64,000 bases of DNA from contig JBAYKX010000023.1 in NCBI GenBank assembly GCA_041664345.1, positions 10,558-74,557 of the forward strand, read 5' to 3'. Below, piece after piece: positions 5,608-35,421 of this stretch. Every line of letters begins with the position of its first letter. Position 1 is the first letter of the stretch. Source of the stretch: Salinivirgaceae bacterium (GTDB taxonomy: Bacteria > Bacteroidota > Bacteroidia > Bacteroidales > SZUA-534). The notes beneath the pieces were generated by a model. That model saw nothing but the letters and a program-made list of their open reading frames with translations, was not told the origin of the DNA and ran no database searches. The translations under genes were made by a program, and so were the position numbers.

Positions 5608-5621
5608 CAACAACTAACCAA

Positions 5622-6827: not shown

Positions 6828-6917
6828 ATATTTACCCTAAAAAAACACCCCTTTGCAGAATCAAACCCTGCAATTCAAATATACATTTTATTCCAGAATA
6901 TCTTCTTTTTATTTTTT

Positions 6918-7766: not shown

Positions 7767-7776
7767 ACGTAATCAA

Positions 7777-8808: not shown

Positions 8809-8908
8809 TGTATTAAACGTGCCTAAAAATAATTTAAGTATAATTGTGAATACTTTCTTACTGACACTAAATACTGTATTTCAAACACAATAAGGCAAAA
8901 ATATAACC

Positions 8909-9484: not shown

Positions 9485-9570
9485 TTTCAGAAATCACATT
9501 TTAGGTTCCTAAATGCTGTAATACATCCCCGTTTTTAGTATATTCACCATTCAATTTAATAGGTTGTTGC

Positions 9571-11898: not shown

Positions 11899-11906
11899 AA
11901 TAAGCA

Positions 11907-14366
11907 ATGTTTTCGTATAACATTCAAGATATTTCTACTATAGTTGGCGGTGAATTGATTAAAGCATCGGGCGGCAAGATTTCGTATTTACTCATCGATA
12001 GCCGAAAGATTCTTTACCCCAGGGAAAGCCTATTTATTGCTTTACGGGGAACCCGAAACGATGGGCATCTGTTTATTGATGACTTATACAAAGCAGGAGT
12101 CAGGAATTATTTAGTTGAGGAATATCCAAAAGACAAGGAAGTTTATTCGCGGGCAAACTTTGTTAAGGTGGAAAATTCCTTTGAAGCCATGCAAAAACTG
12201 GTTATGTGGCACCGGTCATCCATTAAAGTTCCAGTGCTTGGAATTACGGGTAGCAACGGGAAAACAATTATAAAAGAATGGATTTACCAATGCTTGAGTC
12301 CCGAAAAATACGTAATCAGGAACCCAAAAAGTTTTAACAGTCAGGTTGGAGTTCCCCTTTCGGTATGGCACCTTACTCCAGAGGCCGACTTAGGAATTTT
12401 TGAAGCGGGAATTTCGCAACCCGGCGAAATGGAAGTTTTGCAACAAATAATTCAACCTACCATTGGTATTTTCACGAATATTGGTGATGCACATCAGGAA
12501 AATTTTAATTCGCTGGAGCAAAAGATTGATGAAAAACTCAAGCTTTTTTCAAAGGTAAAAGCCTTAATTTACTGCTCCGATCAAGAATTGGTACATTCCA
12601 AAATTGAGCCGTTAAGCAAAAAAGGAATCCAGCTTTTTTCATGGGGCGTATCCTTTAAGGCCAATCTACAAATAAGGCAAATAGTGCATCAACAAAACCA
12701 AACGGTAATTACCGGATCCCATAAAAATGACAATCTATCAATAACGATTCCTTTTACCGATAAGGCTTCGGTTGAAAATGCCATTCATACCTGGTGTTTT
12801 ATGTTATTGATGGGCTATTCAAATGATTTTATTTCGTTTAAGCTCAGTAAACTCGAAAATGTGGCCATGAGGCTGGAGCTTAAAGAAGGGAGCAATCAAT
12901 GCACCATTATTAACGATAGTTATAATTCCGACTTAGAATCGTTGCACATTGCCCTCGATTTTTTATCGTACCAGAACCAACACAAACAAAAGGTTCTCAT
13001 ATTATCGGATATTGCGCAAAGCGGATATCCTAAAAATGAGTTGTACCAATTAGTAGCCAATGTAGTGCGACAAAAAAAGATTGACCGGTTGATTGGTATT
13101 GGTAACGATATTAGTGAATTTAGAACCTTGTTTGAGACGCGTAAAGAATTCTACCCCACAACCAAAGCATATTTGGAAACCAACGAATGGCAAAAATTGC
13201 ATGATTGTACCATATTACTCAAGGGAGCGCGGGTTTTTGCATTTGAGCAAATTGGGCAATTGCTTCAGAAACAAAACCACCGGACCATTTTTGAAATTGA
13301 CCTGAATGCCATTGAATACAACATCAATTATTTTAAGAAACTACTTCGTCCGGCTACTGGAATTATAGCTATGCTCAAAGCATCCGGTTATGGAAGTGGA
13401 ACCCACGAAATCGCCAATTTGTGCCAGTATCAGAGGGTTGCGGCCATTGCCGTAGCTTTTCCCGATGAAGGAATAGAACTCCGACAACATGGAATTAAAA
13501 CTCCAATTTGGGTAATGAACCCCGAAGAAGAGAGTTTTGCCGGAATGATTGAAAATAAGCTGGAACCCCAGATTTATAATTTACGGTCGTTGATTGAGTT
13601 TAATAAAATGGCCGGACAGTATGCAACAAAACCTTTTCCCATTCATATAAAATTAGATACCGGTATGCACCGATCCGGTTTCTTAAAAGAAGATTTGAAT
13701 GAATTGTTGAATATTTTGCAGCAATCGGAACATGTGAAAGTAGCCACCCTATTTTCCCATTTAGCATCAGCCGATGAGCCGGAACAAGATGAATTTACCC
13801 TGGGTCAAATTAAACTTTTTGAGCAAATGAGCCAGGCTATAATGCAACAATTCAACTATCCAATTAAAAGGCATATTTTAAACTCTGCTGGAGTTGAACG
13901 GTTTGCTGAACATCAGTTTGATATGGTGCGGTTGGGCATTGGAATGTATGGTATTAGTTCAATTAATGCCCAATTGGCTCAGGCCGGAACCCTTACTAGT
14001 TCAATTATTCAGCTTAAGAAGATAGTAAAAGGGCAAACAGTTGGCTATTCCCGAAAAGGAAAAGTCACGGTTGACTCAGTAATTGCTACCGTTCCTGTGG
14101 GTTATGCCGACGGATTGCGGCGTATTTTAAGCAATGGGGTTGGAAAAGTATGGATTAACGGACGTTTGGCACCTATAATTGGAAATGTTTGTATGGATAT
14201 GTGCATGATTGATGTTACCGGGTTGGATGTTAATGAGGGCGACCGGATTGAGATATTTGGGAAACACTTGCCGGTAAACCAATTGGCGGAGTGGATGCAA
14301 ACCATTCCTTACGAAGTTTTAACAGGAATTTCAAGTCGGGTTAAACGGACTTATCATACAGAATAA
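11907..14366 (+). CDS. murF: Bifunctional UDP-MurNAc-pentapeptide synthetase (MurF) / alanine racemase (Alr) fusion
   Basis: The N-terminal half has the Mur ligase P-loop GITGSNGKT. The C-terminal half has the alanine racemase PLP region (AMLKASGYGSG) and VPVGYADG. One uninterrupted 819-codon ORF. Confidence 0.85.
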   Translation: MFSYNIQDISTIVGGELIKASGGKISYLLIDSRKILYPRESLFIALRGTRNDGHLFIDDLYKAGVRNYLVEEYPKDKEVYSRANFVKVENSFEAMQKLVMWHRSSIKVPVLGITGSNGKTIIKEWIYQCLSPEKYVIRNPKSFNSQVGVPLSVWHLTPEADLGIFEAGISQPGEMEVLQQIIQPTIGIFTNIGDAHQENFNSLEQKIDEKLKLFSKVKALIYCSDQELVHSKIEPLSKKGIQLFSWGVSFKANLQIRQIVHQQNQTVITGSHKNDNLSITIPFTDKASVENAIHTWCFMLLMGYSNDFISFKLSKLENVAMRLELKEGSNQCTIINDSYNSDLESLHIALDFLSYQNQHKQKVLILSDIAQSGYPKNELYQLVANVVRQKKIDRLIGIGNDISEFRTLFETRKEFYPTTKAYLETNEWQKLHDCTILLKGARVFAFEQIGQLLQKQNHRTIFEIDLNAIEYNINYFKKLLRPATGIIAMLKASGYGSGTHEIANLCQYQRVAAIAVAFPDEGIELRQHGIKTPIWVMNPEEESFAGMIENKLEPQIYNLRSLIEFNKMAGQYATKPFPIHIKLDTGMHRSGFLKEDLNELLNILQQSEHVKVATLFSHLASADEPEQDEFTLGQIKLFEQMSQAIMQQFNYPIKRHILNSAGVERFAEHQFDMVRLGIGMYGISSINAQLAQAGTLTSSIIQLKKIVKGQTVGYSRKGKVTVDSVIATVPVGYADGLRRILSNGVGKVWINGRLAPIIGNVCMDMCMIDVTGLDVNEGDRIEIFGKHLPVNQLAEWMQTIPYEVLTGISSRVKRTYHTE

Positions 14367-15103
14367 TGCTTATAAAAACAACCAATGATGCCATGGGGCT
14401 TGCCCTTGTTGATTTTATGCAAAAGGGAAAAGCAAAAAAACTGTTTATTGATTCCAATATCGCGGAAACTGATGTGATTCCTGTGGAGTATTTATTTAGA
14501 GATTTTTCTGAGATGCCTCCCATTGAGCAAGTTGCTTTGAATAATTGCCATGGAAAAGTGCTCGATGTTGGCGCAGCTGCTGGATCGCATAGTTTGTGGT
14601 TGCAAAAAAACGGATTTCGGGTAACGGCTATGGATATTTCGGAGTTGGCTTGCCAAGTAATGAAGCAACGGGGAATTGAAGAAGTGTCGCTGGCCGATTT
14701 TTTTGAATACCAAAACCAACATAAGTTCAACACGTTACTGTTTTTAATGAACGGAATTGGTATTTGTGGCCAATTGGAAAATCTGCCTAATTTTTTTAAT
14801 CAATGTAAAAATCTGTTGGCCGAAGGGGGTCAATTACTCATCGATTCGTCGGATTTAATTTACATGTATGGCGACGAGGAAGAAGGGTATGTTATTGATT
14901 TAAATGATTCCTATTATGGCGAAGTGGAATACGTTATGCGTTACGGAAAAATTAAAAGTCCACCGTTCAATTGGTTGTTCGTTGATGCGAACACGCTTAC
15001 TGAATATGCGAATCAGGCTGGTTTTACCTGCGATATATTGGTTGAGGGAAATCACTTTGATTATTTAGCGCGGCTGACTTTAAAAAAGGTTTCATTGGGA
15101 TAG
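14366..15103 (+). CDS. Class I SAM-dependent methyltransferase
   Basis: SAM motif I VLDVGAAAGSHS. The start overlaps the murF-alr stop (ATAATG). Confidence 0.7.
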   Translation: MLIKTTNDAMGLALVDFMQKGKAKKLFIDSNIAETDVIPVEYLFRDFSEMPPIEQVALNNCHGKVLDVGAAAGSHSLWLQKNGFRVTAMDISELACQVMKQRGIEEVSLADFFEYQNQHKFNTLLFLMNGIGICGQLENLPNFFNQCKNLLAEGGQLLIDSSDLIYMYGDEEEGYVIDLNDSYYGEVEYVMRYGKIKSPPFNWLFVDANTLTEYANQAGFTCDILVEGNHFDYLARLTLKKVSLG

Positions 15104-15330
15104 AATGATACTGATTGCAAGATTTCAAAAAAAAGAGGACCGTTGGCTAATTCTTTTTTAGAAGGGATGAGTATATCTAAATTCTTACCAAATATTCCCC
15201 AGATTCAATTTCAGGATTGCTATCTTGTCGAATCTTAGATAAGAACGTTGCGGTGGCCTGATAAAACTGCGGGCTGGCGGTAGGGTGAACCCCTCATGCA
15301 CCTGTATATGCAATAATTAACTTACTGTTT

Positions 15331-15455
15331 GGAAGAGCGGGTGTTGAAACTTGCAGCGCCCCTGAGCTATCTCCGAGTCATTGGGGCAGGCCGCTGCAAG
15401 AAATTGAAAACTGGAATAATGGCAAAGGTGAATATATGGAAAATGGGAAAATGAG
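15331..15455 (+). repeat. Family C intergenic element, variant core with nested hairpin plus GG-rich short repeats
   Basis: Perfect 9-bp inverted repeat cttgcagcg (15350-15358) / cgctgcaag (15392-15400) enclosing an inner gcccc...ggggc pair. This is followed by aaattgaaaactgg and ggaaaatgggaaaatgagg, as in the other family C loci. Confidence 0.6.
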
Positions 15456-15527
15456 GATTTTTTTGATATTTTGCAACGTGATAACCAGCGACAAATATAT
15501 ATACAACAAAACAACTATTTTTTTTAA

Positions 15528-17330
15528 ATGAACCCTACTCAAATAGAAACCTACCGGAAGCGGATTGATCAGTTTGCCATTGAATTGAAAACTGCCAAAC
15601 AAAGACATGCTCTTGTTTCCATCATTCGGTTATTTTGTATTATTGGAATTTTAGTTTCGTGGTTTTGGGTGTTTACAATCAATCCCTGGTTGGGTTCATT
15701 TTTAGGAAATTTTTTAATTGTCCTATTCCTCATTTTGCTTAAAGTTCATAAAACAATTGAAGAAAAACGGGACTTCCTAATCCAATTGATTGAAATTAAC
15801 CAAAAAGAACTGGATTGCTGCCAAGGGATATTTAGCCAATTTGAAGGAGGAGAGGAATTTGTTGATACCAACCATCCGTATTCTTACGATATGGATTTAT
15901 TTGGTGCCGGGTCATTGTTCCAATACATTAACCGCACTGTCACAAATAAGGGCAAGGAGCTTTTGGCCAATTGGCTTCAGAATATACCCTTGGATGAAAC
16001 AACAATTTTGAAAAACCAAAAAGCTATAAGGGAACTTGTTCCACAACTTTCGTTTCGTCAAAAGTTCAGGGCTTATGGAAAAGTATTTCAAACAAAGGCT
16101 GAAGACGAGAGTATGGTTCATCGTTGGATGTTTCTCCCTTCGTTTTTTAAACGGGCAAAGGTTGCTTCAACAATACTTTGGATAGTACCTGCAATTAATA
16201 TTTGTATTTTAATCCTCGCTATTTTTGGTTTTATAGGATGGTCAGTTTTTACAGTTACCATCATTGTTAACTTAGCAATTGTCGGAAGTCGCTTAAAGCA
16301 ATTCAATGAGGCTTATGCGCTGCTCACCAAAAGTCACGGCAGCTTAAAACGAATGGAGCAATTGTTGCTTCTGGTAGAATCGCTGAACCCTGAATGCAGG
16401 TTGAGTAAAGAGTTGTTAAGCCTTTTACATAAAAACCAAATACCGGCAAGTCGTCAAATTAATAAGTTAACAAAACTTTTAGATGGACTTGATAACCGGA
16501 ATAATATTTTGATAGGAATACTGCTAAATTCCTTATTATTATGGGATTGGCAATACCTTTTTAGGATAGAAAAATGGGCTCAAAGCCACCGAACCGATTA
16601 CGATAATTGGATTTATACCATAGGATATTTTGACGCTTTGAATTGCTTGGCTAATTTTTCATTCAACAATTCCGATTTTACCTTTCCGGAAATAGTGCCT
16701 GTTGGATTCCAACTGAGTGCTGTTGAAATGGGTCATCCTTTATTACTCAAAGAAGATAGAATCTGCAACAATTTTGACCTTTCCGGACAGCCCAGGTATG
16801 CCATTGTTACGGGTGCTAATATGGCCGGCAAAAGCACTTTTTTAAGAACTGTGGGAGTAAATCTGATTTTAGCCGGATGTGGAGCCCCGGTTTGCGCCAA
16901 AGAATTTAAAGTTACTCCGCTGCCCTTGTATTCAAGTATGCGAACGGAAGATTCGTTGATGAAACATGAATCGTATTTTTATGCCGAACTTAAGCGATTG
17001 CAGCGCATTGTTCATGAGTTGGATAAAGGCCGTAAATTATTTATTGTTTTGGATGAAATTTTGCGGGGCACCAATTCTGAGGACAAGCGCAAAGGTTCCA
17101 TTGGGTTTGTAAAAAAGATTACCGAAAAAATGGCTTATGGTTTGGTGGCTACCCACGACTTGGAGCTGGCAAAATTGGCCGAACAACTGCCGCAACTATT
17201 TACTGCAATATGCTTCGAAGTAACTCTAAATAACAATGAATTGGAATTCGATTATAAGCTGCAGCCGGGAGTTACACAAAATATGAATGCTTCCTTTTTA
17301 ATGCAACGGATGGGGATTATTGATATATGA
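15528..17330 (+). CDS. MutS-related ATPase (MutS domain V only) with N-terminal transmembrane segments
   Basis: C-terminal Walker A GANMAGKSTFLRTVG, Walker B FIVLDEILRGTN, and ATHD. The N-terminal part has several hydrophobic helices. No mismatch-binding domain is recognisable. Confidence 0.8.
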   Translation: MNPTQIETYRKRIDQFAIELKTAKQRHALVSIIRLFCIIGILVSWFWVFTINPWLGSFLGNFLIVLFLILLKVHKTIEEKRDFLIQLIEINQKELDCCQGIFSQFEGGEEFVDTNHPYSYDMDLFGAGSLFQYINRTVTNKGKELLANWLQNIPLDETTILKNQKAIRELVPQLSFRQKFRAYGKVFQTKAEDESMVHRWMFLPSFFKRAKVASTILWIVPAINICILILAIFGFIGWSVFTVTIIVNLAIVGSRLKQFNEAYALLTKSHGSLKRMEQLLLLVESLNPECRLSKELLSLLHKNQIPASRQINKLTKLLDGLDNRNNILIGILLNSLLLWDWQYLFRIEKWAQSHRTDYDNWIYTIGYFDALNCLANFSFNNSDFTFPEIVPVGFQLSAVEMGHPLLLKEDRICNNFDLSGQPRYAIVTGANMAGKSTFLRTVGVNLILAGCGAPVCAKEFKVTPLPLYSSMRTEDSLMKHESYFYAELKRLQRIVHELDKGRKLFIVLDEILRGTNSEDKRKGSIGFVKKITEKMAYGLVATHDLELAKLAEQLPQLFTAICFEVTLNNNELEFDYKLQPGVTQNMNASFLMQRMGIIDI

Positions 17331-17333
17331 GTA

Positions 17334-17566
17334 GGGAACTTGCAGCGCCTGCTGCGAGAGATTGGAAAACTGGGATGATTGGAAAATGGGAAAGGGTTGC
17401 CAGGTTACAAGGCTGCAGGGTAGAAAGGTAGCAGGGTTACAAGGTAACAAGGGAACAAGGTGGCCGGGTTACAGGGTTACAAGGTGGGAAATTAGGAACG
17501 TTGGAACTTGCAGCGCCTGCTGCGAGACAAGCTGCTGCGAGAGATTGGAAAATTGGAGCAATGAAC
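17334..17566 (+). repeat. Family C intergenic element: two direct hairpin cores bracketing a degenerate octamer array
   Basis: Cores lie at 17335-17373 and 17503-17556 (ggaacttgcagcgcctgctgcgagagattggaaaaytgg). Between them are 8-nt units ttacaagg ctgcaggg tagaaagg tagcaggg ttacaagg taacaagg gaacaagg tggccggg ttacaggg ttacaagg. Confidence 0.7.
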
Positions 17567-17606
17567 ATAAAAAATACCCACCCCAGTAAATTTCAAGAAC
17601 CTACCG

Positions 17607-17788
17607 CAGGGAAATCGCTTTTAAGAATTTCAATTTTAAACACGCTTTTTCGGCGCATGGTTTTTCACAATTTCAATTAAACTGTAGTGCTTGCGCCGAT
17701 TTTATACCGCAAATTCATATACCCCGAGTTGAAACTCGGGACTATTCATATTAAATCCCTCCGGGATTTCTTAAAAGCGAATTCCCTG
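17607..17788 (+). mobile_element. MITE-like element, family A, copy 1 (182 bp)
   Basis: Terminal inverted repeat cagggaaatcgcttttaagaa / ttcttaaaagcgaattccctg with 1 mismatch. Flanked by a perfect 10-bp direct repeat gaacctaccg (17597-17606 and 17789-17798). No ORF. A second copy is inverted at 50110-50293. Confidence 0.8.
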
Positions 17789-17823
17789 GAACCTACCGGG
17801 ATGGGGATTATTGAATAGGGAAC

Positions 17824-20800
17824 TTATTCAATACTGATTTTCTTATAGTATATTTTTTCGGCGGTTGCTATCACCACAAAATAATTGCCCGTAGTAAGCC
17901 TCGAAAGGTTTATTCCTTTGGTTAAATTAACTGATTCATTGCTAAATACAATTTTACCGGTTGCATCCAACACTTTAACCTGTTGTACTTTGGTAACCGG
18001 GTTTAATGCTTTAATATGCAAGAACCCTCTGACAGGATTCGGATAAATGTTAAATGCCTCAGAAGCCTCAACCAGTAATTTAATGCCCAAATCGTTTTTA
18101 ACGAGAATAGCAAAAAAACATGTTATAGTCAATCCGCCCAAATCGCTAGCCTTAATAAGCAATTCATGCAATTGCTTATCGGTAGTAATGGTTTTGTTCA
18201 CTACCAAATTATGGCCGGTAATGGTATAGTTTTTTGTGTCATCCAAGTTAGTTTGAGTATCGGAGGTAAATTCGAAGGTGTGTGAATCGTTCATATCTTC
18301 GTCCTCTACATTCAAAACACCAACCACCGTACCCAGCATATCGGAAACAAAAACCGTATCGTTGCTTAATAAAATGTCGGTTGGGGCTTCGTTAACATTG
18401 TTAATGATTACTTCAAAACTTCTTTCCATGCTGGAATTACCCTCGTCTATAGCTTTTATTCGATAATATAGTTTTGATTTAAATTCATAGTTAAATTCAG
18501 CACCAGATAATAAATTATAACCATCAATTGAAAATGCATTGTTATCATCGGAGCCAATTCCATCAACTAATTCAAATGAATGATTGCCCTGAGAATCTTC
18601 ATCAAATACTTGTAAATTAGCAACTACTGTATTTAATGGCATGTTTTCGTAAATTGTATATCCAATATAACCTATTTCAGTAATCGGGTCATTCATATCG
18701 GTTACCGTTAATACAAACCCCTTTTCAAATGAATCTCCTTCCGAATCAATGGTTTTGACCCTAATTTTTAGTTCATTCTTAGCCTCAAAGTTTTGAGTAT
18801 AAGCTTTTAACTGATTACCTTCAATAGTAAAATAAGTGTTATCATCGGAACCTTCCCCGACTACAAGTTCATAAGTAAAGCTATCGTTGCTGTTTTTATC
18901 AATAGTTGATAACGTGCTTATTGCCGATAAATCAGGCAAGTTTTCAGCAAAACTGGCAAACGACAATTGAATATCGGTAGGTGGATAATTGATGGGAAGA
19001 TACAAGCTCTGTATGTCGTTGGTATAGGTAGCTGTCATAAAACCATAGTATCCGGTACCAAAATACACCGAATCGCCCAAAGCAAATGAAATGGGATTAT
19101 TTCGGTTGTTCCCCAAATTTAGTAAGTCGCCCAAGTTTTCAACTTGATTGGTGCTTGGTTTGTAGCTTACAATATCTTTCTTGTTACCATAACAGATATA
19201 CCCTTTATTCCCAATTCCAATAGCTGTGGCATCATTCACTGAGAGATGTAATCCATCGGCAAAAATTTTCTGTTGCCAGCTATTGGTTGCCGGGTTGTAT
19301 TCCTGTATATCGCTCGATTGCGATGTCCCATTGGAATAGTTGACCCCTCCCGAAACATAACCCTTGCCCTCAACCACAAAGGCACAGGCCGATGTTCTTT
19401 TTGCTCCCGTAAAGGTGGCAATTTCAGACCACGAGTCATGTACGGCATCGTATTTCCAAAAGTCCTTTGTTTCATCCATTGCATCGGCTCCGGTGCCTAC
19501 ATAAGCGGTATCGTTAATAACAAAGCTAACCGCATCGTAACGGGCGGTTCCTGCAAAATTGCCAAGGGTTGTCCATTGATTGGTGGCAGGGTTGTATTCA
19601 TAAAAATCGGGATAGTAAGTAAAGGGGTATTTACTGCCTCCCAAGCCAACGTAACCCTTTCCATTAACAGCAAATGCAACAGCTTCTGTTCTTGCTGCCC
19701 CAGGGAAAGGAGCTACCTTTGTCCATACATCGGTTCCGGCATTATATTTCCAAAAGTCGCTTAACACACTGTCGGCATTTTCGCCCAAACCCACATAAAC
19801 GGTATTATCAATGGTAAAACTTACCGCACTGGAACGGGGAATTCCCCGGAAGGGATTGATTCCCGTTTCATCCACATCAATCAGGTTGATGGTAATGGTG
19901 GCGGTATCGGAAAATTCGCCATCGAAAGCCACTACTTGAAGGTTAAAAGATGGGTTAACTTCGTAATCTAAAAAGAGGTTGTTATTTACCGATATTCCAC
20001 CGGTTGAAGCATTTATAGCAAAAGTATTGTACAAGTTACCGGAAATTATAGCATGCGCTAATACATCGCCATCTAAATCGGAAGCAACAACAGAACCAAT
20101 AATAGTTCCATTCTGCTGGTTTTCTAAAACAGAAAATTCAGTATCAAGAAACTCTATGGATTCGTTTATATTTAAAATATTAATGGTAATTGCTGCGGTG
20201 TCGCTTAATTCTCCATCAGACACTAGCGTTAGAAGTTCAAAAGTTTTGTTTTCTTCAAAGTTTATAGCCGTGGAATCTATTACATAAACAACCCCTGTAG
20301 AGTCAATCACCCCAAAAACCTTATCGAGGCTTGCATGAATAATAGAATAGGTCAATTTTGAATTGAAATCTTCATCGGCAGCAACCAACGTGTCTAAAAT
20401 TGTACTATTATTTGGGTTTTCAGGAATGTTTAAAACTAAATCGGATAGGTGGGGTTTTTCATTTAGATCAATTAAATCTATATCAACTTTAACCGAATCA
20501 ATTAATTGACCATCAGAAACTAAAATTTTTAGATTAAATGATTTGTTTAGTTCATAGCTTAAATATTGTGTGTTTTTAATTTGAATGGCTCCTGTTGTGG
20601 AATTAAGGTCAAACACATTACTTATATTGCCCGAAACAATGGTGTAATTTAATGCATCATTATCTTCATCAAAAGCTTCTAGTTGATAAATAATTGAATC
20701 ATTGGGTAAATTTTCCTCTATTTCTAACTGTTTATAAGGGTTACATATAAGTTCATTAACATTATCAATTTGAATATTAACGAAAGAAGTATCAACAAAT

Positions 20801-22194
20801 TCCCCATCAGAAACTTGTACATATAAACTGAAATTTTGATTCTCTTCATAGTTGATTAAAGAAGAATCCATAACATAAATAACACCGGTCGAGTCAACTA
20901 CTCCAAATGCACCAGATGGATTTGCCTGAACAATAGAAAAAACATGGGTATCATTATAATCTTCGTCAGAAATTAAAATGGTATCAACAATTGAATTGTT
21001 TAAAGGATTTTCATCTATCAACTCTTGCAAATTATTGGTCAAAACTCTTTCATTAACATCATTAATTTTAATGTTGTAGCCTATGAGTTTGCTTGATGAT
21101 CCATCATATATTTTAATTATTGCGTACAATGAATCGTTTCGTTCAAAGTTAAAGTAACTTGAATCAATAATCGAAATCTGCCCTGTTTCACTATCTAATT
21201 TAATTGCATTATCATCATTCCCATCAAAGACCGAAAACTCTAGAATTCCATTACCATAATAATAAGCATCAACAGTATCAAGTATCTGATTATTATTTTG
21301 ATTTTCATTTATTTGGATTTCTTGATTATAAGTATAAAGTTCAGGCCCTTGATATTCATAAGCACCTATATCAATTCTTCCATATTGAATTCTTTCATTA
21401 CCTTCAAAATCATAATTAGTTATTAAAGAATCATTTGTAAAATTTGGGTCGCCCATATTTATGCAGGGTGATGTATTTTGTAACGCATAAGGATTTGCAC
21501 CGGAACCCACAAATAAAGGATCAACATCTATATTGCCATCAGCTTGTAATTGAGCCCCCACAATATCACAATTGGTTATTTTAGGAGTTGAGTTGTATGG
21601 ATCTAAATTTGCCTGCCCATTGCCTGAAACAATGCAGTTTGATATTTCAGATAAGGAGTAATTTATTTGAATTCCAGAAACTTGATTATCCGATATGGTA
21701 TTGTTTGTTATTTTAGGTGAAGAAAAATCACAACTAATACCAATCCAATAATTTTTTACAATTAGGTTCCCTTCGATTCGTGGAGATGCTTGATAACAAT
21801 AAATTGCTTCATTATTGTTACGTGTAATTAAATTATTAGCTACAATAAGTTTATTCATATTATAAACACACAGTGCACTACCATAGCCATCAAGCCAATA
21901 ACTGCCAAAGGCATTCCCAAACTGCATAATACAGAATTCAATTTTTGAAGTATCGTTTGAGCTGGGTGTTTCTAAAAACCGAATACCACCCCAACCACCA
22001 CTGATATAAGTCAATACCGAGTCTTTGGCTGTAAAAATTATCCTATTTTGTGCCGTTCCTTGGGCTAAAATCCTTCCTTGCACATTGAGTTTGTAATGCC
22101 CCTGAAACTCTACATAAACCCCCGGGTTTATGGTTAAGGTGCGGGCATTGTTAATGGTTAAGTTGTTATAACTTTTATGGTGTCGGCACTCCAT
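17824..22194 (-). CDS. C-terminal fragment of giant T9SS-secreted adhesin (beta-helix module 4, cadherin-like repeats, Kelch-like beta-propeller, more cadherin-like repeats, T9SS C-terminal domain)
   Basis: Its first residues (NNLTINNARTLTINPGVYVEFQGHYKLNVQGRIL) continue the repeat that the upstream ORF breaks off in. Cadherin-type domain ends are present (INDVNE, IDNVNE, LIDLNEKP, VTDMNDP). Kelch-like repeats (FWKYN..WT, FYEYNPATNQW). C-terminal IYPNPVRGFLHI... sorting domain. Confidence 0.8.
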   Translation of the reverse strand: MECRHHKSYNNLTINNARTLTINPGVYVEFQGHYKLNVQGRILAQGTAQNRIIFTAKDSVLTYISGGWGGIRFLETPSSNDTSKIEFCIMQFGNAFGSYWLDGYGSALCVYNMNKLIVANNLITRNNNEAIYCYQASPRIEGNLIVKNYWIGISCDFSSPKITNNTISDNQVSGIQINYSLSEISNCIVSGNGQANLDPYNSTPKITNCDIVGAQLQADGNIDVDPLFVGSGANPYALQNTSPCINMGDPNFTNDSLITNYDFEGNERIQYGRIDIGAYEYQGPELYTYNQEIQINENQNNNQILDTVDAYYYGNGILEFSVFDGNDDNAIKLDSETGQISIIDSSYFNFERNDSLYAIIKIYDGSSSKLIGYNIKINDVNERVLTNNLQELIDENPLNNSIVDTILISDEDYNDTHVFSIVQANPSGAFGVVDSTGVIYVMDSSLINYEENQNFSLYVQVSDGEFVDTSFVNIQIDNVNELICNPYKQLEIEENLPNDSIIYQLEAFDEDNDALNYTIVSGNISNVFDLNSTTGAIQIKNTQYLSYELNKSFNLKILVSDGQLIDSVKVDIDLIDLNEKPHLSDLVLNIPENPNNSTILDTLVAADEDFNSKLTYSIIHASLDKVFGVIDSTGVVYVIDSTAINFEENKTFELLTLVSDGELSDTAAITINILNINESIEFLDTEFSVLENQQNGTIIGSVVASDLDGDVLAHAIISGNLYNTFAINASTGGISVNNNLFLDYEVNPSFNLQVVAFDGEFSDTATITINLIDVDETGINPFRGIPRSSAVSFTIDNTVYVGLGENADSVLSDFWKYNAGTDVWTKVAPFPGAARTEAVAFAVNGKGYVGLGGSKYPFTYYPDFYEYNPATNQWTTLGNFAGTARYDAVSFVINDTAYVGTGADAMDETKDFWKYDAVHDSWSEIATFTGAKRTSACAFVVEGKGYVSGGVNYSNGTSQSSDIQEYNPATNSWQQKIFADGLHLSVNDATAIGIGNKGYICYGNKKDIVSYKPSTNQVENLGDLLNLGNNRNNPISFALGDSVYFGTGYYGFMTATYTNDIQSLYLPINYPPTDIQLSFASFAENLPDLSAISTLSTIDKNSNDSFTYELVVGEGSDDNTYFTIEGNQLKAYTQNFEAKNELKIRVKTIDSEGDSFEKGFVLTVTDMNDPITEIGYIGYTIYENMPLNTVVANLQVFDEDSQGNHSFELVDGIGSDDNNAFSIDGYNLLSGAEFNYEFKSKLYYRIKAIDEGNSSMERSFEVIINNVNEAPTDILLSNDTVFVSDMLGTVVGVLNVEDEDMNDSHTFEFTSDTQTNLDDTKNYTITGHNLVVNKTITTDKQLHELLIKASDLGGLTITCFFAILVKNDLGIKLLVEASEAFNIYPNPVRGFLHIKALNPVTKVQQVKVLDATGKIVFSNESVNLTKGINLSRLTTGNYFVVIATAEKIYYKKISIE

Positions 22195-25100
22195 ACTACA
22201 TCTTCATTGGGGAGTTCAAAATATTCATTTGAATTGAGTACATAAATTTCGGTAATGAGTGTATCGGATAAAACGCCATTGCTCACTTTTATCTTCAAAT
22301 GGTAGTTAGTTTCTGCCTGGGCCTCTGTTGGAACCCATTTTATTGTATCGTTTTCAATTGACAAACCACTCGGGGCCTCAATTATGGTGTAAGTTACTCC
22401 TGAAGGAAAACTTATCGGTTTTATTGCTTCTGCATAAACGGAATCAAAACGGATGTGCTTTTTTCTGATTGTACGGAAAACTAAAAACGAATCAGGGTCG
22501 CTTTGCAGTTCGTATGCACCCATATCAATTGTAGGGTTTGTTCCCCCTTCGTAAATCCTTGGGTTACCGGCTATGTCCATGTTTATTTCCAAACTATCCG
22601 TATCCCAATCGGGTCGCCCGGAATTTAAACAAGGTGATGTTTTTTGTAACGCATAAGGATTTGAACCGGATACCACAAATAAAGGATCCACATCTATATT
22701 GCCATCAGCTTGTAAATTAGCTCCCACAATATCGCAATTGGTTATTATAGGAGTTGAGTTGTATTGTTCTAAATTTGCCTGCCAATTTCCTGAAACAATG
22801 CAGTTTGTAAGTTGCGGAGACGAGCTTTGTAAAGATATTCCACAATAACCTTGATTATCCGATATGGTATTGTTTGTTATTTTAGGTGAAGAATTATAGC
22901 AATTAATACCATTCCCATAATTTTTTACCATCAAGTTCCCTTCAATTAATGGTGATGCATTATTACAATAGATTGCAGAATTCCAACTAGATGATCTGTT
23001 TTTTGCAATTAAATTATTGGTAATTTTAATTTTGTCAAAACCATAAATACATAATGCGCCTCCATGACCATCAAGCCCATCACTGCCAAAGGCATTCCCA
23101 AACTGTATGATACAGAATTCAATTTTTGATGTATCGTTTGAGCTGGGTGTTTCTAAAAACCGAATACCACCCCAACCTCCACTAGTATCAGTTAATACCG
23201 AGTCTTTGTCTGTAAATGTTATCCTGTTTTGTACCGTTCCCCGTGCTAAAATTCTTCCTTGTACATTTAATTTATAATGCCCCTGGAATTCCACATAAAC
23301 GCCTGGGTTTATGGTTAAGGTACGGGCATTGTTAATGGTTAAGTTATTAATAACTTTTATGGTGTCGGCACTCCATACAACATCTTCATTGGGGAGTACA
23401 AAATATTCATTTGAATTGAGTACATAAATTTCGGTATTGAGTGTATCGGATAAAACGCCATTGCTCACTTTTATCTTCAAATTATAGTTTGTTTCTGCCT
23501 GGGCCAATGTTGGAACCCATTTTATGGTATCGTTTTCAATTGCCAAACCACTTGGGGCTTCAATTATGATGTAAGTTACCCCTGAAGGAAAACTTATCGG
23601 TTTTATTGCTTCTGCATAAACGGAACCAAAACGGATGTGCTTTTTCCCGATTGTACGGAAAACTAAAAACGGATCAGGGTCGCTTTGCAGTTCGTAGGCA
23701 CCCATATCAATGGTAGGGTTTGAACCAAAAGTATAAATCCTTGGGTTACCGGCTATGTCCATGTTTATTCCCAAACTATCCGTATCCCAATCGGGGCGTC
23801 CGGTATTTAAACAGGGTGATGTATTTTGTAACGCATAAGGATTTGCACCGGAACCCACAAATAAAGGATTTATATCCATATTGCCATCAGCTTGTAAATG
23901 AGCCCCCACAATATCGCAATTGGTTATTTTAGGAGTTGAATAGTATTGAGCTAAATTTCCATCCCCATTGCCTGAAACAATGCAGTTAGTAAGTTGCGGA
24001 GAGGAACTAACTAAATATATCCCATAATCTTGATTATCCGATATGGTGTTGTTTGTTATTTTAGGTGAAGAATTATCACAATAAATACTATAATAATAAT
24101 TTTTTACAATTAGGTTCCCTTCGATTCGTGGAGATGCATGATAACAAAAAATTGTGTAGTATCTGTTACGTATAAATAAACTATTAGCTACAATAAGTTT
24201 ATTCATATTAGAAACACACAATGAACTTCCAAATTGATCGAGCCAATCGTCACTGCCAAATGCATTCCCAAACTGCATAATACAGAATTCAATTTTTGAA
24301 GTATCGTTGGCACTTGGTGTAGAATAAAACCTAATTCCACCCCAACCACCACTGGTACCAGTTAATATTGAGTCTTTGGCTGTAAAAGTAATTCTGTTTT
24401 GTGCCGTTCCCCGGGCTAAAATCCTTCCTTGTACATTGAGCTTGTAATGCCCCTGAAACTCCACATAAACCCCCGGGTTTATGGTTAAAGTGCGGGCATT
24501 ATTAATGGTTAAGTTATTAATAACTTTTATAGTGTCGGCACTCCATACAACATCTTCATCGGGGAGTTCAAAATATTCATTTGAATTGAGTACATAAATT
24601 TCGGTATGGAGCGTGTCGAATAAAACGCCATTGCTCACTTTTATCTTCAAATTGTAGTTTGTTTCTGCCTGGGCCAATGTTGGAACCCATTTTATGGTAT
24701 CATTTTCAATTACCAAACCACTTGGAGCCTCAATTATGGTGTAAGTTATCCCTGAAGGAAAGCTTATCGGTTTTATTGCTTCTGCATAAACGGAACCAAA
24801 ACGGATGTGCTTTTTTCCGATTGTACGGAAAACTAAAAACGGATCGGGATTGCTTTGCCGTTCGTATGCGCCCATATCAATTGTAGGGTTTGTTCCCCCT
24901 GTGTAAATCCTTGGGTTACCGGCTATGTCCATGTTTATTCCCAAGCTATCAATATCCCAATCGGGTCGCCCGGTATTTAAACAGGGTGATGTATTTTGTA
25001 ACGCATAAAGATTTGAACCGGAACCCACAAATAAAGGATCTGCATCTATATTGCCATCAGCTTGTAAATTAGCTCCCACAATATCGCAATGGGTTATTTT

Positions 25101-25690
25101 AGGAGTTGAATTGTCTTGGTATAAATTTCCATACCCATTGCCTGAAACAATGCAGTCTGTTATTTCAGGAAAGGAACTATCAAAAATATTAATACCATAA
25201 CCTCCATTATCCGATATGGTATTGTTTATTATTTTAGGTGAAGAATTATTGCAACTAACACCAGTCCAATAATTTTTTACAATTAAGTTTCCTTCAAATA
25301 GAGGTGATGCATTATAACAATAGATCGCTTCATTATTGTTATGTGTAATTAAATTATTAGCTACAATAAGTTTATTCATATTATAAACAAACAATGCACT
25401 ACCAACTCCATCAAGCCAATCGCTGCCATAGCCATTTCCATATTGTATAATACAGAATTCAATTTTTGAAGTGTCGTTTGTATTTGGTGTATCAATAAAC
25501 CGTATGCCATGCCAACCACCACTGGTATCCGTTAAAACAGTATCCTTTGCCGTAAAAGTTATCCTATTTTGAGCCGTTCCCCGGGCTAAAATCCTTCCTT
25601 GTACATTTAGTTTGTAATGCCCTTGAAATTCCACATAAACACCCGGGTTTATGGTTAAAGTAATGCCATTATCCACAGTAATTTCTCCGG
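21340..25690 (-). repeat. Tandem ~1.17-kb intragenic repeats (about 3.6 copies)
   Basis: The anchor string atggttaa recurs at 25651, 24481, 23311 and 22130, giving spacings of 1170, 1170 and 1181 nt. Long stretches are identical between copies by eye. Confidence 0.9.
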
Positions 25691-25850
25691 TTACTTTTAC
25701 GGTGTCGGCACTCCAGGTTTCGTTGGTGGTAATGTTTCCGCTTTTTTCAATTACAGTTTGGGCTTGTAGGGTTGTGCCCAATAAAAAAATAAATGGGAGT
25801 AGTAGATTCTTCATTTGTGCTATTTTGTTTAAAAAACCTTGGATGCTCAA
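22158..25850 (-). CDS. N-terminal fragment of the same giant adhesin (signal peptide + three tandem beta-helix/Ig-like modules)
   Basis: The likely real start is the ATG at 25814 (MKNLLLPFIFLLGTTLQAQ); the track start at 25850 is a TTG. Contains three ~390-aa near-identical modules. The ORF ends in ...VVWSADTIKVITT*, where intact modules read ...VVWSADTIKVINNLTINN. Confidence 0.8.
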   Translation of the reverse strand: MSIQGFLNKIAQMKNLLLPFIFLLGTTLQAQTVIEKSGNITTNETWSADTVKVTGEITVDNGITLTINPGVYVEFQGHYKLNVQGRILARGTAQNRITFTAKDTVLTDTSGGWHGIRFIDTPNTNDTSKIEFCIIQYGNGYGSDWLDGVGSALFVYNMNKLIVANNLITHNNNEAIYCYNASPLFEGNLIVKNYWTGVSCNNSSPKIINNTISDNGGYGINIFDSSFPEITDCIVSGNGYGNLYQDNSTPKITHCDIVGANLQADGNIDADPLFVGSGSNLYALQNTSPCLNTGRPDWDIDSLGINMDIAGNPRIYTGGTNPTIDMGAYERQSNPDPFLVFRTIGKKHIRFGSVYAEAIKPISFPSGITYTIIEAPSGLVIENDTIKWVPTLAQAETNYNLKIKVSNGVLFDTLHTEIYVLNSNEYFELPDEDVVWSADTIKVINNLTINNARTLTINPGVYVEFQGHYKLNVQGRILARGTAQNRITFTAKDSILTGTSGGWGGIRFYSTPSANDTSKIEFCIMQFGNAFGSDDWLDQFGSSLCVSNMNKLIVANSLFIRNRYYTIFCYHASPRIEGNLIVKNYYYSIYCDNSSPKITNNTISDNQDYGIYLVSSSPQLTNCIVSGNGDGNLAQYYSTPKITNCDIVGAHLQADGNMDINPLFVGSGANPYALQNTSPCLNTGRPDWDTDSLGINMDIAGNPRIYTFGSNPTIDMGAYELQSDPDPFLVFRTIGKKHIRFGSVYAEAIKPISFPSGVTYIIIEAPSGLAIENDTIKWVPTLAQAETNYNLKIKVSNGVLSDTLNTEIYVLNSNEYFVLPNEDVVWSADTIKVINNLTINNARTLTINPGVYVEFQGHYKLNVQGRILARGTVQNRITFTDKDSVLTDTSGGWGGIRFLETPSSNDTSKIEFCIIQFGNAFGSDGLDGHGGALCIYGFDKIKITNNLIAKNRSSSWNSAIYCNNASPLIEGNLMVKNYGNGINCYNSSPKITNNTISDNQGYCGISLQSSSPQLTNCIVSGNWQANLEQYNSTPIITNCDIVGANLQADGNIDVDPLFVVSGSNPYALQKTSPCLNSGRPDWDTDSLEINMDIAGNPRIYEGGTNPTIDMGAYELQSDPDSFLVFRTIRKKHIRFDSVYAEAIKPISFPSGVTYTIIEAPSGLSIENDTIKWVPTEAQAETNYHLKIKVSNGVLSDTLITEIYVLNSNEYFELPNEDVVWSADTIKVITT

Positions 25851-25957
25851 TTTAGTGTATATTAACTTGGTGTTCTGAGGTTGTTTTACAAGTGGTTATA
25901 CTTGCGAAAATAACCATAATAATGTGATATGCAAAAAGTATGTGGAACATTTAGTGT

Positions 25958-26268
25958 AAAGTTGGGGATTTGGAAAGTTGGGAAGTTGGGGAAAGGGTAG
26001 CAAGGTAACAAGGTTGCAGGGTTACAAGATGGAAAATTGGGGACGTTGGAACTTGCAGCACCCGCTGCGAGACATGCCGCAGAGAGAGATTGGAAAATTG
26101 GGAAAATGGGAAGTTTCCAAGCCCAAAGGACGTTGGAAAGTCGGTAGTTATTCCTTTTTAACTTTCCATAGCCACATTGACGTTTCCATGTCCTCCGGAC
26201 GATGGAAAGTCAGTGCTGATGTGGAAAAGTCGTTGAAATTTGAAATTCTGGAAAGATGGGAAATTGGA
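25958..26268 (+). repeat. Family C intergenic element (heptamer/octamer-type units + hairpin core + extra hairpins)
   Basis: Reads aagttgg gaagttgg..., then tagcaagg taacaagg ttgcaggg ttacaaga, then the core ggaacttgcagcacccgctgcgagacatgccgcagagagagattggaaaattgg at 26048-26101. Next come the hairpins tggaaagt...actttcca and tttccat...atggaaa. Confidence 0.65.
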
Positions 26269-26270
26269 AA

Positions 26271-26316
26271 GGTTGAAAAATGGAATTATTTCTTTCCATT
26301 TTTCAACCTTTTTTAT
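26271..26316. terminator. Strong hairpin, probable (bidirectional) terminator
   Basis: Perfect 13-bp stem ggttgaaaaatgg (26271-26283) / ccatttttcaacc (26296-26308), followed by ttttttatt. It lies directly 3' of the minus-strand gene ending at 26320. Confidence 0.65.
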
Positions 26317-26319
26317 TGG

Positions 26320-27123
26320 TTAGAACACCCAACCAATGCGTAGTCCAGCAGTACCAGCAATGGGTACTTCTTCACCTCCAGTTGCGAAGCCGTAGGCTAT
26401 TCCTTCACCATTGCCACCAGCTTTGCTATAGCCATAGCCAAATCCAACATATAAATCCACTAAAAATGAATCATCGATTACCCATTGTTTACCAAACTTT
26501 AGCATTAATGCAATGGCAAAATCATCCTCACGCTTGGTTGATGAATTGTAAGGGTAATAATAATCATAATCATAAGTATCAAAATACATGTAGCGTAATG
26601 CAAATTCAGGAGCAATGTAAGCCCCTTTAAGAATGTGTGAATAACGCATTTTATTCATATAAAGGTCGGGTGTTCTTATAAATTTATAGGCAAATTTGGT
26701 ATATACTCCCGCTGGATTATTTTCCTGAGGATCGAATCCCAAACCTACTATACCAAGCGCAGCTTCAAAGGATTTCCCGGGTTTTATATTTTGTTCGTAG
26801 GCAAATTCGGTGCTACCGTATAAAGGCGACAGAAAATTAATTTTAAGGGCTCGCCGGCTTTGATTGGTATAATAATCCGGATTATCAAAACTGTTGTTTT
26901 CCATTTTAACAACTTCACCAGTTGAAAATTCAACTCTATCAACCAAGGATTTTTCTATTCCAAAAATAATTTTAGGATTGCTTTGGTAAAAATACTTTAT
27001 TTTATCACTGCCCAATTCCGATACAGTGCAAGTAATAACATCGCCATTTGTTTTAATAATTTTATCTTGAGCAACCGATGTTAGGGTTATAAAGACCAAT
27101 AGAAAGCTAATAATATTTTTCAT
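26320..27123 (-). CDS. Hypothetical outer-membrane beta-barrel protein
   Basis: Signal peptide (MKNIISFLLVFITLTSVAQ). Alternating aromatic/glycine-rich strands and a terminal ...GLRIGWVF, as is typical of OM beta-barrels. No specific family recognised. Confidence 0.55.
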   Translation of the reverse strand: MKNIISFLLVFITLTSVAQDKIIKTNGDVITCTVSELGSDKIKYFYQSNPKIIFGIEKSLVDRVEFSTGEVVKMENNSFDNPDYYTNQSRRALKINFLSPLYGSTEFAYEQNIKPGKSFEAALGIVGLGFDPQENNPAGVYTKFAYKFIRTPDLYMNKMRYSHILKGAYIAPEFALRYMYFDTYDYDYYYPYNSSTKREDDFAIALMLKFGKQWVIDDSFLVDLYVGFGYGYSKAGGNGEGIAYGFATGGEEVPIAGTAGLRIGWVF

Positions 27124-27177
27124 TTTTAGTTAATTAAGGTTAGTACTTTTTCAAAGATGTACGTTATTTAAAAAGGT

Positions 27178-27201
27178 TGCTAAAAATAGACAATTTTAGC
27201 A
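27178..27201. promoter_or_regulatory. Candidate operator palindrome upstream of znuA
   Basis: tgctaaaa-N8-ttttagca inverted repeat, about 70 nt upstream of the znuA ORF start. The function is inferred only from its position in front of a metal-uptake operon. Confidence 0.3.
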
Positions 27202-27268
27202 TACAACTGAAATTATGTTAGTTTTTCGTTAAATCAATCGAACTTACTAAAACAAATTATCTCTCTAC

Positions 27269-28210
27269 TTGTCATTGAGATTATTTGCTACTTTTGCTTT
27301 ACAAAATTCAATTATTAAGAAGTATTTATTTTTATCACTAAGCGTGTTTTCGCTGTTTATATTTATTGGTTGTAGTCAGAAACGGGCCATTTCAGATAAA
27401 CCTACTGTTACGGTGAGTGTGATTCCCCAGAAGTTTTTTGTGGATCAAATTGCCGGTGATTGGTTGTATGTGAATGTGATGGTTCCCCCTGGAGGTAACC
27501 CCCATACCTATGAACCAACTCCCATGCAAATGAAGTCGTTGTCCAATTCATTGGCTTATTTTAGTATTGGATATATTACTTTTGAAACCGCTTGGATGGA
27601 TAAATTAGTGTCGGTAAGTCCCAAAATGAAGGTAATAGATACTTCAGTTGGTTGTGAATTGTTAGCCGAGGATGCTTGGTGTGAGGAACATACAGAATTG
27701 GATGGAAGTACTACCCGCCATGAATCTTACAATCCACATATATGGTTATCACCAAAATTGGTTAAAATTCAGGCTCAAATCATATACGAAGCATTATCTG
27801 AATTGTACCCAGAGCATAAACAATCGATGGAACAAAACATAAATCGGTTCTTAGCGCAATGCGATTCAGTACATTCCAGTTTAGACACTATCATGAATAG
27901 TTCCAGCGGCACTTCCTTTATTGTTTATCACCCGGTATGGACCTATTTAGCTAAGGATTATAATCTCAAACAAATAGCTATTGAATACAATGGAAAAGAA
28001 GCCACTGCCGACAAATTGAAAAACATTATTGATTTTGCCAATAAAAATGACATCCGGTTTATTTTTGTGCAAAAGGAATTTAGTGATGCCCAAGCAAGAA
28101 CCATTGCTGAACAGATAAATGGGCGTGTGGTTTCAATGAATCCGCTTAATTACGATTGGTTCACTACCATGAAGGAATTTGGCGAAGCATTTCAGGCAAT
28201 TAAGAATTAA
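27269..28210 (+). CDS. znuA: Zinc/metal ABC transporter substrate-binding lipoprotein (ZnuA/TroA family)
   Basis: Lipobox LFIFIGCSQ. Metal-ligand regions GGNPHTYEPTP and NPHIWLSP. The TTG start is uncertain. Confidence 0.8.
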   Translation: MSLRLFATFALQNSIIKKYLFLSLSVFSLFIFIGCSQKRAISDKPTVTVSVIPQKFFVDQIAGDWLYVNVMVPPGGNPHTYEPTPMQMKSLSNSLAYFSIGYITFETAWMDKLVSVSPKMKVIDTSVGCELLAEDAWCEEHTELDGSTTRHESYNPHIWLSPKLVKIQAQIIYEALSELYPEHKQSMEQNINRFLAQCDSVHSSLDTIMNSSSGTSFIVYHPVWTYLAKDYNLKQIAIEYNGKEATADKLKNIIDFANKNDIRFIFVQKEFSDAQARTIAEQINGRVVSMNPLNYDWFTTMKEFGEAFQAIKN

Positions 28211-34399: not shown

Positions 34400-35421
34400 T
34401 TGGAAAACTTACATACCATGAAATCATACGGAATTATTAGCCTTGTACTTTTGCCTCTTTTATGGCAAAGTTGTTCCCGCAGTCAATGGGATATTGATAT
34501 ATCGAATATTGAAATTTCGCAACAGTATCAGAGGTTCGATGTGGATCTGTTTTCGGCCAACCCCGATAGTTTATGGCAAATGGTGCCTAAATGGGAGCAG
34601 AAATACGGCAATTTTTTTGAGGCATACAACCAACAAATCATCAAAATTGGAGGCAGCAATCAAATGGATTATGCCAAAAAATTGAAATACTTTCTTACCG
34701 ATCCATACATTGCCGATGCTTATACCGATGTTCAGCTAAAATTTAGTGAATTGCCCTTTAAAGATGAGCTTATTGACGCATTTAAGCGCTACTATTATCA
34801 TTTTCCGGATAAAAAAATCCCCAATATTTACACACACGTTTCAGGTTTTAATCAATCCATAGTGGTTGATTCGGCTTATATTAGCATCAATTTGGATAAA
34901 TATTTAGGACCCGATTCGAAGTTTGATAGCATGTTGCGCACTCCGCAGTACCTGAGTGAGAACATGCACCCACAAAAGATACCCGCCGATGTGATGATGG
35001 CCTTGGCATTGACTGAATTCCCCTTTTCCGGTGAAAAGGACGATCTGCTCAGTCAATGCTTTATTATGGAAAAATACATGTATTTGTTGATGCCATGCTC
35101 CCCGAAACAACCGATACTTTGAAATGGGGATACACACAGGAAAAAATCAGGTGGTGCCAAAAGAACGAAAAGTTTATGTGGCTGTATTTGATTGAATACA
35201 AACTGCTATTCAATTCGAGTTATAAAGAGAAAAAACGGTATATTGATGATGGCCCATTTACCTCCACTTTTTCGAATGAATCGCCTGCCCGAACCGGTCA
35301 GTGGTTGGGTTACCAAATAGTGAATGCTTACCTCAAGGAACATCCGGAGGTTAAACTGCCGCAATTAATGGAGGATCAAAACTATCAGGAAATCTTGAAT
35401 AAGTCGAAGTATAAGCCGTAA
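34400..35421 (+). pseudogene. gldB: Gliding-motility lipoprotein GldB, frameshifted (track ORFs 34400-35122 and 35056-35421)
   Basis: The likely start is the ATG at 34418 (MKSYGIISLVLLPLLWQSC lipobox). The frame switches between 35035 and 35058: ...SGEKDDLLSQ then MLYYGKIHVFVDAMLPETTDTLKWGYT.... The span 34418-35421 is 1004 nt, one short of a multiple of 3. The nadE neighbourhood fits the gldB context known from Flavobacterium. Confidence 0.7.

Follow-up and report, generated by a model that had tools for sequence, protein, structure and literature searches.

The adhesin gene that appears as two overlapping open reading frames in the 64-kb stretch of Salinivirgaceae DNA analysed here (the window, 64,000 nucleotides) is very probably intact in the sequenced populations, and the one-base deletion that divides it is best read as an error of the deposited assembly, not as a feature of the organism. 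The error (at 22167/22168) would be confined to the 76,884-bp contig on record at NCBI and JGI/IMG. The adhesin of the sequenced populations would occupy one frame of ~2,663 codons from its ATG and encode an ordinary giant T9SS cargo protein, with a Sec signal peptide, four tandem beta-helix modules of ~390 aa and a type A sorting domain.

Architecture of the apparently divided adhesin gene

Two minus-strand ORFs, overlapping by 37 nt, make up the locus: a 5' ORF (22158..25850; 1230 codons from a TTG, 1218 from the ATG at 25814) and a 3' ORF (17824..22194; 1456 codons). The deposited record gives each its own CDS (1218/1230 aa and 1456 aa). A preliminary description made from the letters had proposed that a missing base splits a ~2,660-codon T9SS adhesin into these ORFs, and the sequence, the ORFs and the Pfam assignments agree with this. 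The span 25814..17824 was recomputed as 7991 nt (2 mod 3), one short of a multiple of 3 as claimed. Pfam likewise bears out the allocation of three beta-helix modules to the 5' ORF and of the sorting domain to the 3' ORF, as it recovered three Beta_helix stretches in the former and, in the latter, a fourth one together with Cadherin and Kelch domains and Por_Secre_tail. The parts follow one another in the order signal peptide, four beta-helix modules, cadherin repeats, kelch propeller, cadherin-like repeats and Por_Secre_tail, and the features of the locus are as follows.

17824..25814, minus strand: T9SS cargo adhesin of ~2,663 aa, one gene (from the ORFs, Pfam and the single-gene call on the ENA contig)
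25758..25814, minus strand: predicted N-terminal signal peptide MKNLLLPFIFLLGTTLQAQ (assigned by eye from the translation, without a predictor)
24546..25715, minus strand: module 1, 1170 nt, beginning WSADTVKV (module comparison; Beta_helix)
23376..24545, minus strand: module 2, 1170 nt, 85.9% DNA identity to module 1 (module comparison)
22194..23375, minus strand: module 3, 1182 nt, 84-86% DNA identity to modules 1 and 2 (module comparison)
21024..22193, minus strand: module 4 (module comparison; Beta_helix at residues 98-210 of the 3' ORF)
22167..22168, minus strand: site of the missing base, GTTA-TAACAAC in the window against GTTATTAACAAC in the read-derived contigs and the ENA assembly
17830..18048, minus strand: type A T9SS C-terminal sorting domain (CTD), Por_Secre_tail PF18962/TIGR04183 (Pfam)

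The DNA identity among modules 1-3 (84-86%) points to a recent tandem expansion, and module 4 keeps the beta-helix portion while its distal portion diverges into the cadherin region. The sorting domain occupies residues 1383-1455 of the 1456, at the extreme C-terminus; the match takes in the whole profile (positions 1-75 of 75) and scores 47.9 bits, where the cut-off is 27. It shares one polypeptide with the signal peptide (as recognised by eye) only in the intact version. Of T9SS and gliding genes, a gldB homologue (PF25594, E 1e-102) and, nearby, another cargo gene with Por_Secre_tail were seen.

The missing base falls 26 nt into module 4, at the boundary between modules 3 and 4, where the minus strand reads GTTATAACAAC, one base fewer than expected (on the plus strand an A is missing after 22167). 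Both intact boundaries (24492-24533 and 23322-23363) read ACC ATA AAA GTT ATT AAT AAC TTA ACC, while boundary 3/4 reads ACC ATA AAA GTT ATA ACA ACT TAA, that is, one T fewer and a T>C substitution, which in an intact frame would be synonymous (AAT>AAC); re-reading returned the same letters and the same substitution as the preliminary description. The boundary motif found no match in 100 shuffles.

Independent sequences of the same locus

We compared the window with two groundwater sequencing runs (X1, and X2 from a different study), both read as Logan contigs, which drop rare variants, so that a minority allele with the deletion could escape. In X1 a 229-nt contig covers 21967-22194 with no other differing letter and a single gap, where it has an A more after 22167; the locus-specific AAC marker is present at the junction, and single-copy depth in this run is ~245. 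A 273-nt contig of X2 spans the site with the same result (the extra A, no other letter changed). The form recovered from both runs reads GTT ATT AAC AAC (VINN) with every locus-specific marker present, and the extra base accounts for the whole depth in each (243/243 in X1, 3.5/3.5 in X2), the deletion form of the window being absent from the contigs of both. X1 contains 0.98-0.99 of the window, which no other indexed public run exceeds, and across the junction no run contains more than two of the five sampled words of an 86-nt query, a result that is weak alone.

The independent assembly ERZ27249449 in ENA carries the locus on contig k141_7305 (76,925 bp), with GTTATTAACAAC at the boundary and one 2675-aa gene (started at the upstream TTG) that holds the same four modules. 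The 90% protein cluster consists of this 2675-aa protein and fragments of 1456, 1218 and 1230 aa only, all of which derive from the 76,884-bp contig (NCBI, JGI/IMG). Two rhizosphere runs contain relatives of ~90% identity, and at boundary 3/4 these too are one base longer. The preliminary description had entertained a real deletion, a reading contradicted by the extra base in the contigs of X1 and X2 and in the ENA assembly; the lesion, looked for in independent data of the same population as the mark of a pseudogene, was absent from all three. It had further reasoned that the N-terminal part would lack the CTD and the C-terminal part the signal peptide; since independent data hold the extra base and an intact 2675-codon gene, these split-protein consequences are most likely absent from the organism.

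Orthologues from related genomes, P0035 (1755 aa, 43% identity) and P0036 (1610 aa, 39%), resemble the adhesin in having a signal peptide, beta-helix modules starting with WSADT(I/V), cadherin, kelch and cadherin-like repeats and Por_Secre_tail, in the same order, and they differ in having two beta-helix modules where the adhesin has four. Both cross the module boundary without interruption (…WDADTIKVIGNLTLNNTRTLTI…), and orthologues encoded as two separate genes, which the preliminary description had offered as another possible outcome, were not found: the nearest ones are one protein through the boundary. At three further sites of the gene (23209, 25157 and 18231) the read alleles (A, N and Y) agree with the paralogous modules and the orthologues, and those of the window (D, D and N) with neither.

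Window-wide differences and competing readings

Over the full 64 kb, 20 substitutions and three one-base deletions set the window apart from both X1 and X2, and the two runs are identical to each other at all 23 sites. Site 22255 differs in the Logan contig of X1 only (neither in the ENA contig nor in X2); we treated it as a polymorphism or as cross-talk between repeat copies and left it out of the 20 common substitutions. With it included, the 21 compared sites comprise 15 missense, 2 nonsense, 2 synonymous and 2 intergenic changes (random draws would give 66% missense, 4.5% nonsense, 19% synonymous and 10% intergenic), with 8:13 transitions to transversions and 17:2 nonsynonymous to synonymous changes, a pattern that looks unselected. 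Six of the ~40 ORFs in the window are broken, and the lesions outside the adhesin are these.

27318, plus strand: start codon of a ZnuA-like lipoprotein, AAG in the window against ATG in the read contigs
28630, plus strand: nonsense change in a ZnuC-like ATPase, TAA in the window against AAA in the read contigs
35054..35055, plus strand: one-A deletion in gldB (AA against AAA), splitting it into ORFs 34400..35122 and 35056..35421
42608..42609, plus strand: one-A deletion in an AraC-family membrane regulator (GAAG against GAAAG), removing the AraC-type HTH
43866, plus strand: nonsense change, TGA in the window against GGA in the read contigs, in an ORF of 273 aa that the window shows as 209 aa

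In the read version znuA has its start codon again, and the ABC_tran, GldB_lipo and AraC HTH domains are complete. The 297-aa ZnuA-like product that begins at the restored methionine is on record in ENA and Logan. The ZnuC-like product has 252 aa in the read version; in the window it is interrupted at residue 132, inside ABC_tran (26-166), which leaves 131 + 109 aa. The AraC-family regulator extends from 315 to 390 aa, and the fused protein has HTH_18 at residues 302-383. Fused gldB (340 aa) matches GldB_lipo over residues 28-340 (E 1e-102). X2 has the extra A in this gene too: at 35054 it seemed to agree with the window, but this was an alignment-end artefact, and the clipped contig end ATGCTTTATT contains the base. 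Pfam scores at four missense sites differed little, favouring the read allele by 2.6 bits in NAD_synthase and 1.2 in Ala_racemase_N and being level (about 0) at two sites, which is supportive, not decisive. We infer that the differences specific to the window are technical (consensus, amplification or correction errors) and not private mutations. Deep Illumina assemblies do not usually show a rate of ~4e-4 made up mostly of substitutions, which counts against this reading, and the source reads of the deposited assembly could come from a sibling sample in which the deletion is real.

Such a sample leads to the foremost alternative, which we consider unlikely: the deposited genome would represent a real clonal sub-lineage (or sibling sample) that carries unselected mutations (~4e-4 per base) while the wild type persists in the two sampled populations, possibly as a result of hypermutation, a recent bottleneck or enrichment culture. 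The adhesin, gldB, znuA/znuC and the AraC regulator would then be pseudogenes in the course of being lost. The window alleles are held by two public sources (NCBI and JGI/IMG) and so are part of a real deposited assembly; losing adhesin, gliding and uptake genes is plausible in a laboratory enrichment, and X1 is small (1.66 Gb) yet covers the organism ~250x, which suggests an enrichment-like sample. Against this, six broken ORFs in 64 kb would, at the same rate genome-wide, disable ~15% of the genes, and the znu operon alone takes two knock-outs. The excess of nonsynonymous changes also speaks against such a lineage, the spectrum of 8 transitions to 13 transversions, many of the changes being A:T>T:A, matches no common mutator, and the words specific to the window are absent from the contigs of public runs.

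Phase variation, in which a slipped-strand length change at the site toggles the adhesin on and off, is very improbable. Surface adhesins are often subject to it, and the product belongs to this class; however, the tract is TT versus T, neither a long homopolymer nor a simple-sequence repeat, a single tract length per run was seen in the contigs of four runs (Logan contigs drop rare variants), and the other two one-base deletions of the window lie in unrelated genes, in equally short runs. A programmed -1 frameshift of the ribosome at A AAA G, fusing both ORFs in translation, is scarcely credible (the preliminary description already thought it unlikely): one tRNA-Lys slip on ATA AAA G would regain the frame as read from the sequence, but the slippery heptamer X XXY YYZ is absent (ACC ATA AAA GTT allows only a single-tRNA slip), the motif also stands in frame at both intact boundaries, the downstream RNA is unremarkable (MFE -19.9 kcal/mol, z = -1.05, with 31 of 200 shuffles folding equally well or better), and the out-of-frame layout is not conserved: X1, X2 and the ENA contig have in-frame DNA here, as do the orthologues and the relatives of ~90% identity.

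Use of the deposited genome and likeness to gliding adhesins

An assembly error, the reading we prefer, resembles the split-gene artefacts known from draft and metagenome genomes, in which one missing base yields overlapping ORFs that are annotated separately; here too comparable lesions occur in nearby genes, and all are restored by independent data. Unlike the usual homopolymer error of long reads, the differences comprise 20 or 21 substitutions against three deletions and involve no long homopolymers. The main value of the case is one of caution, in that split genes in the deposited genome are to be treated as probable artefacts. Its users should expect about one base error per 2.7 kb, which affects pseudogene counts, inventories of T9SS cargo and gliding genes, and inference on metabolism or essential genes. 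We stress that any further frameshift found in this genome should be compared with read-derived contigs before it is read biologically.

SprB and RemA of Flavobacterium johnsoniae are giant T9SS-secreted surface adhesins of gliding Bacteroidota, and the CTD of SprB is of type B. The adhesin described here is like them a very large repetitive surface protein with a predicted N-terminal signal peptide (by eye) and a T9SS sorting domain, and like them it is encoded near a gliding gene (gldB, 34400..35421). It differs from them in its make-up of beta-helix, cadherin and kelch parts and in its CTD, which is of type A (PF18962) where that of SprB is of type B.

Anatomy of the adhesin gene and its module boundaries

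The giant T9SS adhesin gene occupies the minus strand of the window as two overlapping ORFs, with a base short at the junction of beta-helix modules 3 and 4 (boundary 3/4). Re-reading of the ORFs and boundaries bore out the preliminary description of the sequence in both respects.

Adhesin features in the window
22158..25850, minus strand: 5' ORF, 1230 codons from TTG (1218 from the ATG at 25814)
17824..22194, minus strand: 3' ORF, 1456 codons, overlapping the 5' ORF
starts at 25715, 24545, 23375 and 22193, minus strand: beta-helix modules 1-4, each opening with WSADT(V/I)KV

The N-terminus of the 5' ORF resembles a signal peptide and the ORF has three Beta_helix stretches (Pfam), while a fourth Beta_helix, together with Cadherin and Kelch domains, lies on the 3' ORF, which ends in Por_Secre_tail (residues 1383-1455 of 1456; 47.9 bits, cut-off 27). 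The modules measure 1170, 1170 and 1182 nt, and modules 1-3 share 84-86% DNA identity. Both intact boundaries read GTT ATT AAT AAC TTA ACC, and boundary 3/4 reads GTT ATA ACA ACT TAA (T short by one, plus a T>C change).

The missing base in independent sequence and in relatives

Two groundwater metagenome runs from separate studies (X1 and X2) were examined as Logan contigs, i.e. as assembled sequence rather than raw reads. The window's share of sampled words in X1 was 0.98-0.99, a coverage that no indexed public run exceeded, and X2 also matched; no indexed public run contained more than 2 of the 5 words sampled across the junction. At 99% likeness the sole X1 contig over the site (229 nt, spanning 21967-22194) has a depth of 243, equal to the single-copy depth on the flanks (~245-260), and is free of substitutions, its sole gap being an additional A after 22167 (plus strand). 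As it otherwise matches the window throughout, both locus-specific markers (AAC and GTAGTA) are present, so that it does not derive from a paralogous module. The adjoining unitig (74 nt) begins 3 letters ahead of 22168, where an overlap of 30 nt containing the extra base would place it. The 273-nt contig of X2 has the identical single difference. With the base restored, the coding strand reads GTT ATT AAC AAC TTA ACC (VINNLT), the peptide shared with the other boundaries.

An independent public assembly (ENA ERZ27249449, contig k141_7305, 76,925 bp) covers 5528..27329 of the window, differing only at 6098, 13893, 18231, 22167 (+A), 23209, 25157, 26664 and 27318; it likewise has four modules, called as one 2675-aa gene. 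This product forms a 90%-identity cluster (n = 4) with three fragments (1456, 1218 and 1230 aa), each derived from the 76,884-bp contig (NCBI, JGI/IMG), which is also where the window comes from. The preliminary description, which took a one-base deletion to split the gene, had named an extra base in the reads as evidence against a real lesion: the X1 and X2 contigs and k141_7305 all carry it, and the gene is intact there.

The nearest orthologues, P0035 (1755 aa, 43% identity) and P0036 (1610 aa, 39%), are single read-through proteins, in which two beta-helix modules stand between a signal peptide and the cadherin, kelch and Por_Secre_tail parts, and run uninterrupted across the module boundary (…WDADTIKVIGNLTLNNTRTLTI… and …WSADTIRVYSDLNIKTGRTLTI…). 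Contigs ~90% identical from two rhizosphere runs are one base longer than the window at the boundary. Neither a conserved frameshift nor the two independent genes also considered in the preliminary description were seen in these orthologues and contigs.

This giant T9SS cargo adhesin is most likely intact and is otherwise ordinary. In order, it comprises a putative signal peptide, four ~390-aa beta-helix modules in tandem, cadherin repeats, a kelch propeller, further cadherin-like repeats and a type A CTD. All that is mildly notable in it is the presence of four modules (21024-25715) versus two in P0035 and P0036, which, given the DNA identity among modules 1-3, suggests a lineage-specific tandem expansion. 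Low-depth contigs ~85-95% identical to the adhesin modules (window 21860-22640) turn up in metagenomes X3-X6, which come from rhizosphere, freshwater sediment and peat; relatives bearing this module are thus widespread beyond groundwater.

Window-wide differences and the origin of the frameshift

Compared over the whole 64 kb, the window differs from X1 and X2 by 20 substitutions and three one-base deletions (22167, 35054, 42608), each an A lost from a run of 2-3 A (plus strand); X1 and X2 are the same at all of these positions and the window alone differs. An apparent agreement of X2 with the window at 35054 was an alignment-end artefact. At 22255, T (Asn, the residue of module 2) is confined to X1's Logan contig, against A (Ile) in the window, X2 and the ENA contig; the site is either truly polymorphic or the product of a single assembler's cross-talk between copies of the repeat.

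With 22255 added to the 20 shared substitutions, 15 of the 21 are missense, 2 nonsense, 2 synonymous and 2 intergenic (8 transitions, 13 transversions), where random substitution on the window is expected to give 66%, 4.5%, 19% and 10%, respectively; the pattern has the appearance of change without selection. Within the adhesin, the alleles of the contigs (hereafter the read version) at 23209 (A), 25157 (N) and 18231 (Y) agree with the paralogous modules and orthologues, and those of the window (D, D and N) disagree. By exact look-ups, several proteins are on record in both forms, the window forms in NCBI and JGI/IMG only (76,884-bp contig) and the read forms in Logan and ENA (76,925-bp contig). 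Besides the adhesin, five further ORFs are intact in the read version, all of them in the X1, X2 and ENA/Logan records.

Further ORFs broken in the window and their read version
28630: ZnuC-like ATPase; TAA within ABC_tran in the window, AAA in the read version (one 252-aa protein)
35054: gldB; frameshift in the window, GldB_lipo over 28-340 of the fused 340 aa in the read version (E 1e-102)
42608: AraC-family regulator; frameshift in the window, HTH_18 back at residues 302-383 in the read version
43866: 273-aa ORF; TGA in the window, GGA in the read version
27318: ZnuA-like lipoprotein; AAG in the window, ATG (start codon) in the read version

Because 6 of ~40 ORFs in 64 kb are disabled (two lesions in one operon), the substitutions look unselected, and neither the two independent samples nor a second assembly show any of the changes, the findings are most simply explained by base errors in the deposited assembly, roughly one every 2.7 kb, with the adhesin frameshift among them. 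The profile of such errors is unusual for deep short-read assemblies and a poor fit to typical long-read errors, as substitutions far exceed indels and the indels lie outside long homopolymers. On the evidence of assembled contigs, a real private lineage under relaxed selection is an unlikely source of the same differences. Phase variation of the adhesin at the site is most improbable, the tract changing merely from TT to T and having a single length per run (contigs). Programmed -1 frameshifting to join the two ORFs, already considered unlikely in the preliminary description, is scarcely credible: the site has no heptamer, its motif also occurs in frame at both intact boundaries, z is -1.05 for the downstream fold and, above all, independent data show the DNA in frame.

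Other features of the window and the sample

There are two short intergenic repeat families (6900-7110 and 42960-43150; 17590-17740 and 50140-50235), and within each the two paired copies are partly the same sequence, inverted relative to one another (40 16-mers in common in the first pair, 11 in the second). Their X1 depth is 2-8 times single-copy, the contigs branch there, and they resemble hairpin-bearing, multi-copy MITE- or REP-like elements. A single 819-aa ORF at 11907-14366, with Mur ligase domains and a complete alanine racemase (Ala_racemase_N, _C), is a fusion of the MurF-Alr type. The organism reaches ~250x depth in X1, a run of just 1.66 Gb, and so dominates the sample; this suggests either an enrichment or a community of very low complexity.
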